DNA from: Hyphomicrobiales bacterium
Lineage (GTDB): Bacteria > Pseudomonadota > Alphaproteobacteria > Rhizobiales > JAJFHR01
Reading direction: 5' to 3'
Assembly: GCA_021775475.1 (NCBI GenBank)
Contig: JAJFHS010000070.1
Span: 29,234-93,233 of the forward strand
Length of the DNA stretch: 64,000 nucleotides
Shown one piece after another: positions 2,449 through 43,940 of this stretch (within the stretch, counting starts at the first letter, position 1; each line of letters opens with the position of its first letter). Under the pieces are notes generated by a model. The model had not been told where the DNA came from and ran no database searches. It saw only the letters and a program-made list of their open reading frames with translations. The translations under genes and the position numbers were made by a program.

Positions 2449-3201
2449 TTAAATACGCAGAGACGGCAGGCCGATGCCAGTGCTTTCAAACCCGCCATCG
2501 GCAGCGATCACCTGGCCGGTCACATAGCTGGCTTTATCCGAACACAAAAACGTAATAACAGATGCAATTTCGTCTTCGGAACCGTAGCGATTTAAGGGGA
2601 TGGCATCGTGATAAGCGTCAACAATATCCTGTGTGTGCACCGCCATCGCCAGTTTTGTGCGCACCGGCCCCGGTGCCACACAATTAACGCGGATGCCGTA
2701 TTCGCCCAACTCCGCTGCAAATTGTTGCGTCAGGTGGATGACAGCGGCTTTTGAAGTACCATAGGCTACCCGCAGGGTTGAAGCGCGCAATCCCGATATG
2801 CTGGCGATATTGACAATGCAGCCTTTTGATTGCTTCAAAGCCGGAGTTACCGCCATCGAGCATAAGAAAACGCCATCGAGATTGGTGGCCATAACGTCGC
2901 GCCAACGCTGGAAATCGGTTTTTTCAATCGGGCCGAAATCGGCGACACCGGCATTGTTGATTAATGCATCTATGTGTCCAAAAGCAGCCTCGGTTTCAGC
3001 TACCATGTGGTCGACCTGTTGAGCATCTGAAATGTCGAAAACCAAAGGCAACACGCTGTTTAATCCGTCGGCAGCACTGGCCAGTTCATCGCCATCACGG
3101 TCGACCATGGCCACGCGACACCCCTCGGCAATCAAGAGTTTTGTTGTCGCTAGCCCGATACCGCGTGCTGCTCCGGTGACAATTGCAGTCTTCTCCGTCA
3201 T
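2449..3201 (-). CDS. short-chain dehydrogenase/reductase (SDR)
   Basis: TGAARGIGLA (TGxxxGxG), NNAG, YGTSKAAV (YxxxK). I chose the start at MTEKTAIV (ATG 3201-3199) because it follows AAGGAG and does not overlap the upstream gene. The track ORF extends to 3306. Confidence 0.9.
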   Translation of the reverse strand: MTEKTAIVTGAARGIGLATTKLLIAEGCRVAMVDRDGDELASAADGLNSVLPLVFDISDAQQVDHMVAETEAAFGHIDALINNAGVADFGPIEKTDFQRWRDVMATNLDGVFLCSMAVTPALKQSKGCIVNIASISGLRASTLRVAYGTSKAAVIHLTQQFAAELGEYGIRVNCVAPGPVRTKLAMAVHTQDIVDAYHDAIPLNRYGSEDEIASVITFLCSDKASYVTGQVIAADGGFESTGIGLPSLRI

Positions 3202-3217: not shown

Positions 3218-4342
3218 TTATTCCTTAAAAAACTCATCGTTGTGAGCACCCAACGCCGGTGCGGATTTTGGCTTGGCAACCTCATCTCTGAATTGCGGCA
3301 CCACACCTACGGGGAGCGCTGGCAATTCATCACCTTCGTCATTAACGAGACGGTGGTCAAACAGGCCACGGGATTTGAAATGAGGATCGTTTAAAGCATC
3401 TTCCAGACTTGATACAATCGAGCAGCAACAATCCTCGCCGCTGAACAGTTGGCGCCAGTGTTGGGCGTTTTGCCCGGCAATTAGAGAGGCCACTGCCACT
3501 ATGGTCTGGTCGGCATCTGAATGGTTGTCTTTGAACCCGCTGAGTTGGCAAAACCGGTTCCAGAATTTCTCCTCCAGAGCAGCAACGGCGACAAATTCAC
3601 CATCACTGGTTGGATAAATCTGATAGCGCGGCGAGCCGCCGGTCAAAAGCTCTCCCCCGTTTTTTGGCCATTGACCGCTTAAGTTACCGGCAGCTGAGGC
3701 CCAATAGGTGAGCATGAACATATTGTCGGTCATGGCAATGTCGAGATGTGTGCCCTGCCCGGTTTTATCGCGCATCAAAAGAGCGAGCAGAATATTGACA
3801 ACGGCGGGATAGGTGCCACCGGCAAGATCGGCAATGAGAACGGGCGGTACCACGGGGTGTTTTTTGTTGCCCATGCCCAGGGACAAAACACCAGTGTCAC
3901 CGATGTAATTAAGATCGTGGCCAGCTGTTGAAGCCTTTGGGCCGGTGGCACCATAGCCGGTGATGGAACAATAGATGATTTTCGGGTTGAGCGTTCGAAC
4001 AGCGTCATAATCCAGTCCCAGTCTCTGCATAACACCCGGTCTGAATTGCTCGAGAATGATGTCTGCATCGCGTATCAATGGTTCCAGCTTTTTGACGACG
4101 CCTTTTGCTTTGAGGTCAATGGTCAGAGATTTCTTGCCACGGTTCAAAACTGAAAAATTGACGGATTCACCGCCCCATCTGGGATCATATTGCCGCAACT
4201 CTTCACCAAACCCCGGTCGCTCGATTTTGATGACTTCCGCACCGGCTTCAGCCAGCATCAGGCTGGCCATGGGACCAGGCAGCAGGGTTGAAAAATCCAA
4301 TACCCGAATGCCGGAAAGTGGTTGTCTGGTCATAGGTGGCAA
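3218..4342 (-). CDS. family III CoA-transferase (CaiB/BaiF), alpha-methylacyl-CoA-racemase-like
   Basis: GIRVLDFSTLLPGPMASLMLAEAGAEVIKIERP N-terminus and a GHDLNY motif typical of the CaiB/BaiF/AMACR family. Confidence 0.85.
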   Translation of the reverse strand: MPPMTRQPLSGIRVLDFSTLLPGPMASLMLAEAGAEVIKIERPGFGEELRQYDPRWGGESVNFSVLNRGKKSLTIDLKAKGVVKKLEPLIRDADIILEQFRPGVMQRLGLDYDAVRTLNPKIIYCSITGYGATGPKASTAGHDLNYIGDTGVLSLGMGNKKHPVVPPVLIADLAGGTYPAVVNILLALLMRDKTGQGTHLDIAMTDNMFMLTYWASAAGNLSGQWPKNGGELLTGGSPRYQIYPTSDGEFVAVAALEEKFWNRFCQLSGFKDNHSDADQTIVAVASLIAGQNAQHWRQLFSGEDCCCSIVSSLEDALNDPHFKSRGLFDHRLVNDEGDELPALPVGVVPQFRDEVAKPKSAPALGAHNDEFFKE

Positions 4343-4357
4343 TCTTCCAATTCAGGT

Positions 4358-5317
4358 TCAGAAAAAATCCAGCGGTAGTCTTCCGCGATCAATCATAATC
4401 AACACAAGCGTCACTGTAATCATCGAAATTGCCGTGGTGACAAGAATTGCACTGGATGAGCCTTCAACGTATTCGTCATATTGCACCGCCATGACAAAAA
4501 CAGTGGTGGCAGTGGGCAGTGATGCCATCAAAACAGCAACCCCCACCCAAAGGGGATCAATCCCGCCCATGAGCGTTAAAATCAACAATACCAAAAGCGG
4601 GTGCAGAACTGATTTGGCAATGACAATCAGGGGGAATTCACGCCCCATTCCGGCCAGCGGCTGATAAGCCACGGTAACACCGAGGATAAAAAGCGCACTG
4701 GGGGCAGCAGCGCCACTGAGAAAATCCAGTAATGTATCAACCGGCAGCGGTAGTTTTATGGAAAATGCCGAGGCAAAAACCCCCAGAATTGTTGCGATGA
4801 TAAACGGGTGCAAAAATACCTGTCTGGCGATCTTGATCAGGATTGCCTTTACATCGGTTTTTTCCGAACTGCCAAAAGAGTTCAACAGCGGCACCAGTGA
4901 ATATTGCAACGTGCTGTCAAAACAGAAAATCAACGTAGCGGGAACAGCGGCTGCTGGCCCAAGGGCTGCTACCGTTAGCGGCAGCCCCATATAACTGATG
5001 TTACCATAACTGGCTGCTGCCCCCTGCATCGCGGCTTCGCCAATACGCTTGTTCAAAATCATAAGCGATACAGCAAAAACCAGAATGAATATTGCATAAG
5101 AAGAAAAAGTTGTAGCCAGAATGAAAGGCCAGTTGGTCAATTGTTCAATCGGTGCCGAGGCGACAGTTTGAAACACCAGCGGCGGCAAGGCGAAGTAGAT
5201 CACGAATGTATTAAACCATTCGATGCCGCTTTTATCCTTGCGTATGAATTTTCCGGCGATGAAGCCTATCAATATGAGGCCGAAAAAGGGCAGAATGAGA
5301 TTTACAACAGTGCTCAT
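4358..5317 (-). CDS. AEC (auxin efflux carrier) family membrane transporter
   Basis: 319 aa, roughly 10 hydrophobic helices. N-terminus (VVNLILPFFGLILIGF) and overall layout are typical of the AEC/membrane transport protein family. Confidence 0.8.
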   Translation of the reverse strand: MSTVVNLILPFFGLILIGFIAGKFIRKDKSGIEWFNTFVIYFALPPLVFQTVASAPIEQLTNWPFILATTFSSYAIFILVFAVSLMILNKRIGEAAMQGAAASYGNISYMGLPLTVAALGPAAAVPATLIFCFDSTLQYSLVPLLNSFGSSEKTDVKAILIKIARQVFLHPFIIATILGVFASAFSIKLPLPVDTLLDFLSGAAAPSALFILGVTVAYQPLAGMGREFPLIVIAKSVLHPLLVLLILTLMGGIDPLWVGVAVLMASLPTATTVFVMAVQYDEYVEGSSSAILVTTAISMITVTLVLIMIDRGRLPLDFF

Positions 5318-42517: not shown

Positions 42518-43147
42518 ATGACACCCGAATTGATCATTTCAATCTTTGTTACCTTGCTGGTGACCATTGACCCGTTGGGAATTGTGCCGATTTTCGTTTC
42601 TTTGACCGTTGGCATGACGCCCCGGCAAAAACGTACCGTGGCCATTCGCTCGTCTGTCATTGCACTGGTGGTTTTGTCCGTCTTCGCATTGTTTGGTGAA
42701 AAAGTCCTCGGCGTCCTTGGCATCACCCTGCCCGCTTTTCGAACCGCTGGCGGGTTGATGTTATTGTGGATCGGGTTTGAAATGGTGTTTGAAAAGCGCG
42801 AGGAACGTAAATCCGCCACCGCCGAGCGCGCCGTCTCAGACAAACACGTCAATGACGTTGCAGCTTTCCCGCTGGCCATACCGCTGATGGCCGGTCCCGG
42901 CGCCATAACAGCCACCATGCTGATTGCCGCAAAGTCTGACGGAAACTGGATTGTTCTGGGCACGCTTATAGGTATTATCGCGATACTGCTGCTGATCTGT
43001 ACCGCAATATTTGTCCTGTCAGGGCGCATAGAAAACCTGATCGGAGAAACAGGCCGTATCGTACTCTCACGGCTTCTGGGCGTCATCCTCGCAGCTCTCG
43101 CAGTGCAGTATATTGCCGATGGCATTATACAACTGGCGCGCGCTTAA
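42518..43147 (+). CDS. MarC-family (UPF0056) membrane protein
   Basis: MTPELIISIFVTLLVTIDPLGIVPIF... 210 aa from ATG 42518, preceded by AGGAGAG. The track ORF's 84-aa N-terminal extension lies in an AT-rich intergenic region. Confidence 0.85.
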   Translation: MTPELIISIFVTLLVTIDPLGIVPIFVSLTVGMTPRQKRTVAIRSSVIALVVLSVFALFGEKVLGVLGITLPAFRTAGGLMLLWIGFEMVFEKREERKSATAERAVSDKHVNDVAAFPLAIPLMAGPGAITATMLIAAKSDGNWIVLGTLIGIIAILLLICTAIFVLSGRIENLIGETGRIVLSRLLGVILAALAVQYIADGIIQLARA

Positions 43148-43157
43148 AAGTGGCGTA

Positions 43158-43545
43158 TTTTTAGTGGCGCTCAAGCGGCGCGCAGCCTGCGGGCCCGTTG
43201 GGCCCTAGTCCAACGCTTCGCTCGTCCGGGTGCTTTACGGATAATTCCTCAGTTGGTCTCCGGGTGCCTTACCAATAATCCGTCAGTTGGTCCTTGCTGG
43301 AAGGGGTTTGTAATCCCTTTCGGAATTTTCATGCCTATGTTGCTGCAGGCTCAGTTTTCAGCAACCCTCTTTAACATCCTATATCAATTCACCAAACGCA
43401 GGTTCGGGAACGTTCAGGAAGGGGGTACAAACCCATTCCTGCAATGGGAAGGGGATTTATCATTGTGGCACCCGGAGGAGCGTAAGCGAACGACTAACGA
43501 GCGACCGCGAGTGCAGGCTGCGCGCCGCTTGAGCGCCGCTAAAAA
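43158..43545. repeat. about 390-bp imperfect palindromic, MITE-like element with 33-bp terminal inverted repeats
   Basis: 43158-43190 TTTTTAGTGGCGCTCAAGCGGCGCGCAGCCTGC is the reverse complement of 43513-43545 with 1 mismatch. Further imperfect pairing runs inward. An internal 2 x 34-bp tandem repeat lies at 43225-43292. No coding capacity is credible. Confidence 0.6.
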
Positions 43546-43574
43546 CCCGCTAAAAACCCAAGTTTTTAGCGGGG
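43541..43574 (-). terminator. intrinsic terminator of the 43566-43940 gene
   Basis: Stem CCCGCTAAAAAC (43546-43557) pairs with GTTTTTAGCGGG (43562-43573) around a 4-nt loop. On the minus strand it is followed by TTTTT (43545-43541). The stop codon lies inside the stem. Confidence 0.6.
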
Positions 43575-43940
43575 CACTTTAACCATTATTTCCTTGCCAC
43601 CATATTTATGTACGCTGTCATGGGCGCGTATGGTGACGGTGGTTAAGTCTGCCGGGATTTTTACTCCCGAAAGACTGCGGGTGAAAGGTTGTTCGTTTTC
43701 ATGGGGATGAACAAGGACCCGCTTGCCTAAAATATTGCCGTTATTATCAAGCACTTCCCAGGCATCAGCGTAATGTTTCCAGCCGGTGTCGGCATGTTTG
43801 ACAGCGACATCAAAGCTGTAACCGCCGCTGGAAGACTGCGATATATTAACGTCAACGACGTCGGCCTCGCCAGCATTGGCGTTGGTTGCCAGTATCGCGC
43901 CAGCGATAAGAACAACTGGTATTGTAAAGAGATTTTTCAT
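43566..43940 (-). CDS. small secreted protein of unknown function (His-rich beta-type domain)
   Basis: From ATG 43940: MKNLFTIPVVLIAGAILATNANA|GEADVV... is a signal peptide. The mature ~100 aa contains KHADTGWKHYADAWEV and LVHPHENEQPFTR. I recognise no family. The track start at 43976 is a TTG. Confidence 0.6.
   Translation of the reverse strand: MKNLFTIPVVLIAGAILATNANAGEADVVDVNISQSSSGGYSFDVAVKHADTGWKHYADAWEVLDNNGNILGKRVLVHPHENEQPFTRSLSGVKIPADLTTVTIRAHDSVHKYGGKEIMVKVPR

Follow-up and report, generated by a model that had tools for sequence, protein, structure and literature searches.

A composite palindrome beside marC, probably a copy of a modular, REP/BIME-like repeat family of marine Alphaproteobacteria

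Introduction

Among the described families of short non-coding repeat in bacteria, those closest to the element considered here are the repetitive extragenic palindromes (REPs) of Enterobacteriaceae such as E. coli together with their composite forms (bacterial interspersed mosaic elements, BIMEs, and, in Pseudomonas, REP doublets forming hairpins, REPINs, which are associated with REP-associated tyrosine transposases, RAYTs), the BOX elements (boxA-boxB(n)-boxC) found in Streptococcus pneumoniae, the RIME/Sm elements of rhizobia, and the Correia (NEMIS) miniature inverted-repeat transposable element (MITE) of Neisseria. The present element is an imperfect palindrome of 390 nucleotides (nt) lying between two convergent genes, marC and a gene for a small secreted protein, in a 64,000-nt stretch of Hyphomicrobiales DNA (contig JAJFHS010000070.1, positions 29,234 to 93,233; this whole stretch is referred to below as the window). 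It is probably a composite copy of a dispersed, modular, non-coding repeat family of the REP/BIME kind, belonging to a marine alphaproteobacterial lineage.

What the family shares with REPs, BIMEs and REPINs is that short non-coding palindromic units are present in tens of copies or more, mostly just after genes, that inverted doublets of these units fold into long hairpins, that linkers and copy numbers vary, and that copies persist for a long time at orthologous sites. BIMEs alternate two types of unit, Y and Z, much as two types of arm (M1 and M2, defined below) alternate here, and REPs are preferred targets of specific insertion sequences (IS621, of the IS110 family, and IS1397 both target them), a part taken in the present family by IS110- and IS481-family elements. 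The two differ, however, in that there is no sequence similarity between them, that the arm here is longer (about 75 nt) and is not one simple palindrome, and that a core 20-mer of the arm is common to several alphaproteobacterial orders, whereas REPs are specific to a species or genus.

BOX and RIME/Sm elements are likewise modular mosaics in which a centre of variable copy number stands between two end modules, and they too are intergenic, non-coding and without a transposase, but BOX belongs to another host phylum, and in the present family, unlike in either of them, the end modules are inverted copies of each other. The comparison with RIME is an indirect one, and the failure of the element to match any of 72,556 plasmids by blastn (the rhizobial megaplasmids being assumed to be included) is at most weak evidence against similarity. 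The Correia element resembles the family in having terminal inverted repeats (TIRs), in its size (100-400 bp), in being non-coding and multi-copy, in forming RNA hairpins and in lying near gene ends; it has, however, a TA target duplication and fixed termini, neither of which is found in the family of the window. The family is apparently undescribed, in the sense that no description was found: besides the plasmid result, there was no relevant covariance-model match in Rfam (the whole window at gathering score, the region itself at E <= 10, where the best sub-threshold matches, with E = 0.28-1.6, were short and attributable to chance), and a full-text literature search returned no paper containing a core 17-mer. 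The literature on RAYT/REPIN in Alphaproteobacteria and on RIME yielded background alone.

The palindrome and its dispersed relatives

An initial annotation of the region had described a 33-bp TIR with one mismatch, complementarity continuing imperfectly inward, and no second copy in the window, all of which is borne out. A repeat finder gives two arms of 38 nt, 43153-43190 and 43513-43550, that are 92% complementary, and within them the 33-nt core (43158-43190 versus 43513-43545) has a single mismatch, T/C at 43165. Further inward, 43219-43248 pairs with 43453-43482 (30 nt, 77%) and 43294-43330 with 43408-43444 (37 nt, 78%). A 25-mer search allowing up to three mismatches found no third arm in the window (none being expected by chance), and a profile of the arm run over the window with nhmmer returned just the two arms of the 43158-43545 palindrome. 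The fold is far stronger than that of shuffled sequences: RNA from the + strand of the whole region folds at -227.9 kcal/mol, compared with -147 +/- 6.4 for shuffled sequences (z = -12.6), and that from the - strand at -207.0 kcal/mol (z = -10.8). What had been suggested to be one giant hairpin is better described as two arms with modules nested between them, each of which is a repeat of the family.

Relatives were sought by scanning one genome per prokaryotic species with the 20-mer GCTCAAGCGGCGCGCAGCCT (43169-43188); the loci from these scans, about 150 in all from genomes, viral sequences and metagenomes, are given L-numbers where they need to be distinguished. The genomes yielded 59 loci, of which about five look like chance matches within genes, against roughly one expected by chance. 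Three related metagenome-assembled genomes (MAGs), namely CAZJUF and CAZVAZ (labelled ‘uncultured Hyphomicrobiales’ in the database) and JAJRTY (labelled ‘Alphaproteobacteria bacterium Dive96’), account for 15, 12 and 14 loci respectively, many of them at contig ends. The copy count that the initial annotation had proposed as a check thus stands at 12-15 loci per related MAG, and the family is not single-copy. Frequently the matches come as inverted pairs separated by 110-300 nt, or else as direct tandems with a period of 125-131 nt. Some ten further alphaproteobacterial genomes have one to three loci each (among them Rickettsiales-labelled MAGs, Anderseniella, Marinicaulis and Yunchengibacter), a metagenome scan added another 83, and a viral contig of 41 kb carries one solo arm (L060 1586-1605). 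Run over the first 59 loci and the window, the nhmmer arm profile finds 104 arms.

Anatomy of the arm and of the element

The arm, of which 60 copies could be aligned over their full length, consists of a T-run followed by TAG, an invariant core of about 25 nt, a small hairpin (here called M) and a GC-rich tail. Its consensus starts TTTTTAG-NGG-CGCTCAAGCGG, and in full runs TTTTTAG-NGG-CGCTCAAGCGGCGCGCAGCCTGC, hairpin M, TAGTC, then either tail A (CAACGCTKCGCTCGTCC) or tail B (GTTCGCTGCGCTCCTCC), and finally GGGTGCCACAATGAYAGAYT. A 5-bp hairpin can be formed by the core, which RNAalifold returns as an invariant first hairpin, GCGCU-CAAGC-GGCGC. Hairpin M comes in two types: M1 comprises perfect stems (GGGCCC, GGACCC/GGGTCC, AGGCCC/GGGCCT, GCGGGC/GCCCGC, GCCCC/GGGGC and GCGCG/CGCGC), and M2 has the form RCTCGC...GCTCGY, which on the other strand reads ACGAGC-loop-GCGAGT with a tandem G.A mismatch. 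Across 33 distinct M hairpins a mean of 4.6 of the six pairs are Watson-Crick, compared with 2.9 when the halves are swapped between arms, and when covariation was checked, as the initial annotation had proposed, RNAalifold on 30 diverse arms gave four pairs with compensatory changes in this hairpin. The motifs of integron attC boxes (RYYYAAC/GTTRRRY), of nut boxA/boxB, of sigma-54 and EcfG promoters, and of CcrM (GANTC) and IHF sites do not fit the arm consensus.

In the usual element, of 174-178 nt, an arm is followed by an apex hairpin and an inverted arm; longer elements (205-341 nt) hold one to three extra units of 34-35 nt like the tandem repeat of the window copy, which at 390 nt is the longest family member found. 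M1 stands opposite M2 in 13 of the 16 elements in which both hairpins could be typed, and tail B is confined to M2 arms; in the predicted fold the M1 and M2 hairpins branch opposite each other to make a four-way junction. At the outer ends, which are variable, an 11-14-nt motif, GTTTTTAGNGGCGC, is present one to four times in tandem. Direct tandem arrays, in effect half-elements without an inverted partner, also occur (L016 3-439, with four 127-nt units, in JAJRTY; L032; L053). The parts of the window copy are as follows.

43140-43162, + strand: weak hairpin GCGCT-TAAAAGT-GGCGT followed by ATTTTT (5 pairs, 3 of them G-C; tail ATTTTTAGTG)
43148-43157: partial extra copy of the terminal motif, AAGTGGCGTA
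43158-43233, + strand: left arm (nhmmer match 43157-43245, 79 bits; alignment of 60 arms)
43158-43164: T-run and TAG of the left arm
43166-43190: invariant core of the left arm, with the family 20-mer at 43169-43188
43191-43205: perfect type M1 hairpin of the left arm, GGGCCC-GTT-GGGCCC
43206-43227: type A tail of the left arm, TAGTCCAACGCTTCGCTCGTCC, then GGGTGC
43225-43292, + strand: two tandem 34-nt central units (43225-43258 and 43259-43292), 85% identical
43293-43447, + strand: long-centre module of about 155 nt, nested at the apex
43455-43546, - strand: right arm (nhmmer match 43546-43455, 74 bits)
43513-43537: core of the right arm, its T-run being the complement of 43541-43545
43497-43512: type M2 hairpin of the right arm (+ strand ACGAGC-GACC-GCGAGT, tandem G.A mismatch)
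43474-43496: type B tail of the right arm; apex-proximal part of that arm, GGTGCCACAATGATAAAT
43546-43573, - strand: intrinsic-terminator hairpin belonging to the gene for the small secreted protein, CCCGCTAAAAAC-TTGG-GTTTTTAGCGGG, followed by TTTTT (12 pairs, 6 of them G-C; tail TTTTTAGCGG)

The tandem repeat and the GGGCCC hairpin had both been noticed in the initial annotation, as had a local hairpin at 43340-43364, which proves to be one of three within the long-centre module (the others are at 43297-43323 and about 43417-43440). The 34-nt unit is present in zero to three copies in other family members (L030, L045, L021 and L058) and in three copies in L088. The long-centre module is about 90% identical to L132 over 155 nt and 88% identical to L074 over 105 nt, and is partly present in L027 and L071; such recurrence inside other copies of the family marks it as a module, as opposed to filler found nowhere else. 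An open reading frame (ORF) of 109 amino acids, 43253-43582 on the + strand, lies wholly within the repeat and is regarded as spurious, as it has no Pfam match and its sequence is replaced or rearranged in orthologous elements.

History of the site beside marC

The genes around the palindrome are gyrA (- strand), marC (+ strand, stop at 43145-43147), the gene for a secreted protein of 124 amino acids (- strand, stop at 43566-43568), TauE, ssb and uvrA, in an order that is alphaproteobacterial, and the G+C content is about 50%; as had been stated, there is no transposase or other enzyme gene next to the element. In L003, L062, L064, L066 and L069/L088 this site is filled, and in L065 it is empty. 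In L003 (JAJRTY), which is syntenic and about 90% identical over gyrA-marC, it holds a version of about 165 nt with an IS481-family element inside; in L062 there is a 165-nt element (small protein 81% identical to that of the window), in L064 a three-arm element of about 330 nt (small protein 76% identical), and in L066 a three-arm element of which one arm is variant. L065 has instead a spacer of 24 nt with no hairpin. MarC is 90-95% identical among the filled genomes and 78-80% identical to that of L065, and because of these identities L065 is taken as the outgroup and one old insertion suffices. The empty site that the initial annotation had called for is therefore available, as a spacer without the element in the outgroup; comparison with the filled sites reveals no duplicated target, but the spacer is too diverged for alignment.

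At four-fold degenerate sites of marC the window is 58% identical to L062, 58% to L064, 50% to L066 and 34% to L065, and yet, despite these low values, the arm cores are near-identical among L062, L064, L066 and the window. Selection or conversion keeps these cores constant. Next to marC, in contrast, the modules (M, A and B) vary from genome to genome, being shuffled among the orthologous elements. Turnover can be seen at closer range in two metagenome contigs that are about 95% identical to the window and whose breaks fall inside the element. L088 (1-240, compared with 43140-43292) has four copies of the 14-nt terminal motif where the window has two and three of the 34-nt unit where the window has two, and its marC stop is TGA instead of TAA; in L069 the arm beside the small gene carries tail A instead of B, and an IS110-family element lies inside. 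Other orthologous sites among the three MAGs are likewise always filled, and differ by the number of modules, by having a solo arm or a full element, or by an IS inside. The family must therefore be old and vertically kept, with modules that turn over fast; the window copy is old and vertically inherited and not a recent insertion, and the element behaves as a hypervariable locus resembling a variable-number tandem repeat (VNTR).

On this basis the repeat came into the spacer between marC and the small gene before the clade diversified and has passed down vertically ever since, while slippage, and recombination or conversion involving further copies, continually reshape it; no enzyme of its own is found in the DNA sampled.

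The small secreted protein (43566-43940, - strand) matches no Pfam family but has over 3000 homologues (E <= 1e-5) among the proteins searched, and represents a widespread uncharacterised family; among the few matches with a named organism, Pseudovibrio and Lentilitoribacter show 61-65% identity.

Position relative to genes and terminators

Where genes are called on both sides of an element in the related genomes, the element mostly sits between convergent genes, 7-40 nt past both stops. In the window, terminator-like hairpins abut both ends, using the T-runs of the arms as U-tracts (- strand 43573-43546 and, more weakly, + strand 43140-43156). The weaker of these is directly 3' of the marC stop (TAA), with the outer end of the left arm as its T-run, and could be the marC terminator. 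The stronger one, that of the small gene, takes its T-run from the outer end of the right arm, has a further copy of the terminal motif as the 5' half of its stem, and includes in that stem the stop and last two codons of the gene (CCC CGC TAA). The initial annotation had pointed to just this duplication, of CCGCTAAAAA at 43536-43545 and 43547-43556, and the adjoining stem is a perfect one of 12 bp (43546-43557 with 43562-43573). The orthologues L003, L062, L064 and L069 retain the hairpin with altered stem sequences; L065 lacks it, and there the gene ends CCT CGT TAG.

From this arrangement it had been suggested that the element might have grown out of a terminator hairpin, and locally the use of the terminal T-runs as U-tracts agrees with that idea. 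Family-wide it does not carry over: a hairpin abuts the T-run in 21 of 62 arms, compared with 312 of 1688 control T-runs (34% versus 18%), an enrichment so modest that the arm T-run as the U-tract of a native terminator was set aside as a general rule, and the long hairpin itself ends, on either strand, in ...CTAAAAA. Since the element is flanked by the terminators of two convergent genes, transcripts reading through from either side would form a very stable hairpin. This hairpin might keep the two transcription units insulated from each other or shield the 3' ends of mRNAs.

Arms in distant genomes and as cargo

Outside the clade of the window the arm is mostly solo, of about 65 nt, and its hairpin loops read TCAAY. 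In Marinicaulis sp. OZ253943 (L042 2376-2451) it stands in the spacer between 23S and 5S rRNA (by Rfam, 23S extends to 2269 and 5S starts at 2484), on such a strand that the rRNA precursor would hold its reverse complement, and it is the sole exact match to the 20-mer in the 3.4-Mb chromosome. At L028 a solo arm (2977-3052) takes up the spacer that separates an ORF of about 60 amino acids from the next, membrane-protein ORF, the two being presumably cbtB-like and cbtA-like respectively; since it is downstream of a cobalamin riboswitch (2525-2728), the arm lies inside a riboswitch-controlled operon. At L039 an arm precedes an ORF, which we take to be purS, by about 25 nt, and in Yunchengibacter salinarum (L037 2499-2805) three tandem 131-nt units stand just upstream of a gene start. 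Among phage tail and baseplate genes (Phage_tail_S, GPW_gp25) at L043, in JAJRTY, there are arms at 2132-2290, 4176-4245 and 4686-4844, which, taken with the solo arm of the viral contig, show that the arm module occurs in phage DNA too.

A different kind of association is seen in metagenome sample Ga0114931, where about 20 near-identical copies of an element of about 190 nt each have one solo arm inside (L070, L076-L079, L085, L094, L095, L101, L110, L116, L118 and L120, and further L128, L130, L131, L136-L138, L141 and L142). This element has a TIR, CAGGGCAATCGGGTGAA, and is flanked by 10-bp direct repeats, for example CGGACCTGAT (L130), CGGACATGGG (L118) and GGCCTCACGT; its ends are unrelated to the arms. 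On account of the TIR and the 10-bp target-site duplications it is a true MITE of another organism. Ends in ‘CAGGG’ and duplications of 8-10 bp are typical of the ISAs1 family, which we take only as a lead for this one element.

Enzymes and insertion sequences near the repeats

Pfam searches of the 150 ORFs nearest the repeats showed no recurrent mobile-element protein among the matches listed (those of the 25 commonest families), which were to housekeeping genes. One ORF family that does recur beside the repeats was considered as a possible transposase, but consists of paralogous hybrid histidine kinases. Equally, no IS with arm-like ends was seen in the roughly 150 loci; the IS481- and IS110-family elements that are found there have unrelated ends and interrupt the repeat.

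These two elements insert at fixed positions in the arm. That of the IS110 family (1164 bp, with DEDD_Tnp_IS110 and Transposase_20 domains and a 204-nt non-coding leader) has an identical insertion point in the tails of four arms, ...CGCTTCGCTTGTC before the IS and CTTGTCCCG... after it (L008, L069, L092 and L150), the target being around CGCTTGTC followed by CCG. In L069 the insertion is in the 95%-identical counterpart of the window site. In L003, L029, L035 and L081 the IS481-family element (LZ_Tnp_IS481 and rve domains; ends TGTGRAGTYTC...) interrupts the arm at the TAG following hairpin M. The copies with coordinates are as follows.

L092 2406-3569: IS110-family element
L008 about 3759-4935: IS110-family element
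L069 2654 to the contig end: IS110-family element
L150 from 13277: IS110-family element
L003 about 870-1905, - strand: IS481-family element, at the syntenic site in the relative that is 90% identical

The IS110 family is known for recombination guided by a bridge RNA, and the constant insertion point looks like sequence-programmed targeting of the repeat, as practised by IS621 on REPs. Complementarity between the leader and the arm target is confined to a 7-mer in common.

Weighing the explanations

That the palindrome is a composite copy of a dispersed REP/BIME-like family is the explanation we consider probable, but several points weigh against it. The conserved GTAG of REPs is absent from the arm consensus, and copies per genome number in the tens and not in the hundreds typical of REPs. 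No mobilising protein, and in particular no RAYT or other Y1 transposase, was found in the flanks of the roughly 150 loci; the phmmer search with RAYT and IS200 TnpA queries, which found nothing, was a weak test, as it covered all ORFs of the window and of 60 loci (the first ones obtained), in flanks of up to 8 kb. RAYTs are reported to be rare in Alphaproteobacteria (PMC5581495). As to function, the long hairpin is not an intrinsic terminator, because an A-run and not a U-run comes after it, and the solo arms of distant taxa stand upstream of genes, inside operons or in an rRNA spacer, so that a single 3'-end function cannot cover the whole family. The near-invariant core may be kept through recognition by some host or element-encoded protein; this recognition, like insulation and stabilisation, we put forward purely by inference.

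A related but rather doubtful proposal is that the arm of about 65 nt, with its invariant 25-nt core and covarying hairpin, is itself a self-contained module with a function, recognised by a putative protein conserved in Alphaproteobacteria or shared among them and their mobile elements, candidates being a domesticated recombinase in the role of a RAYT, or a nucleoid or RNA-binding factor. It would explain why the exact 20-mer is found across orders, why arms turn up in 23S-5S, operon, prophage and viral contexts, and why one is cargo of a MITE; the palindromic doublets of the window clade would then be a lineage-specific expansion of the module.

Three other identities had been suggested at the outset, namely a non-autonomous mobile element, a structured non-coding RNA (ncRNA) or an elaborate bidirectional terminator. 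Mobility in a broad sense agrees with the many arms in relatives and the empty site of the outgroup. The classical picture of a MITE, i.e. a deletion derivative of an IS with a DDE transposase, mobilised in trans through its ends, can in addition point to a TIR of 33-38 bp and to the true MITE of Ga0114931 that carries one arm, but we judge it unlikely. Target-site duplications were looked for, as had been proposed, and no direct repeats flank any of 19 two-arm elements (the window copy and 18 others); the ends are ragged, being variable tandem runs of an 11-14-nt motif where a fixed terminus would be expected; no partner IS with matching ends is known from the loci sampled, the IS481 and IS110 elements sitting inside the repeat; the systematic difference between M1 and M2 arms is unexpected for a simple TIR; and every orthologous site compared within the clade is filled, which speaks for old vertical inheritance. 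The same variability counts against a structured ncRNA, or a cis-acting RNA element in the 3' untranslated regions of marC, the small gene or both, which we regard as quite unlikely. The fold z-scores are certainly extreme, the fold of the + strand is the more stable of the two by 21 kcal/mol, and hairpin M shows compensatory changes, with invariant G.U pairs on the strand that would be transcribed from each flanking gene. However, most of the fold comes from the palindromy and is equivalent on both strands, covariation in the hairpin is equally expected if it is recognised as DNA (single-stranded recognition of the M hairpin, as RNA or DNA, is possible given this covariation), module content differs between genomes that are 95% identical, and arms occur in both orientations in contexts as unrelated as an rRNA spacer, an operon, a prophage and a MITE, which are too varied for one RNA gene. 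Nor is there any promoter-like site inside or beside the element, a tRNA or tmRNA in the palindrome region by ARAGORN, or, as already noted, an Rfam match. An over-grown bidirectional terminator without any repeat identity is highly improbable: it would suit the site between convergent genes, the hairpins that borrow the arm T-runs at both ends and the modest enrichment of such hairpins beside arms, but is contradicted by the distribution of the family, as the same arms recur at dozens of loci elsewhere and in further taxa, and also by the A-runs after the long hairpin, by the two thirds of arms that have no abutting hairpin, and by the outgroup, whose short spacer has no hairpin at all.

Implications

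No general principle is changed by these results: the window copy taken by itself is ordinary, if long, and the family adds one more instance to a well-known kind. For annotation, the region should be treated as a repeat element, and its internal 109-aa ORF should not be annotated as a gene. With many copies at contig ends, the family further accounts for contig breaks in the related MAGs. More broadly, it adds a REP/BIME-like family to a class in which RAYT-associated repeats are reported to be rare, and the conservation of the core across orders raises the question of which factor recognises it. The arm is, moreover, a defined natural target for an IS110-family recombinase, and the element, through its changing numbers of modules, may serve as a VNTR-like locus for the typing of strains.

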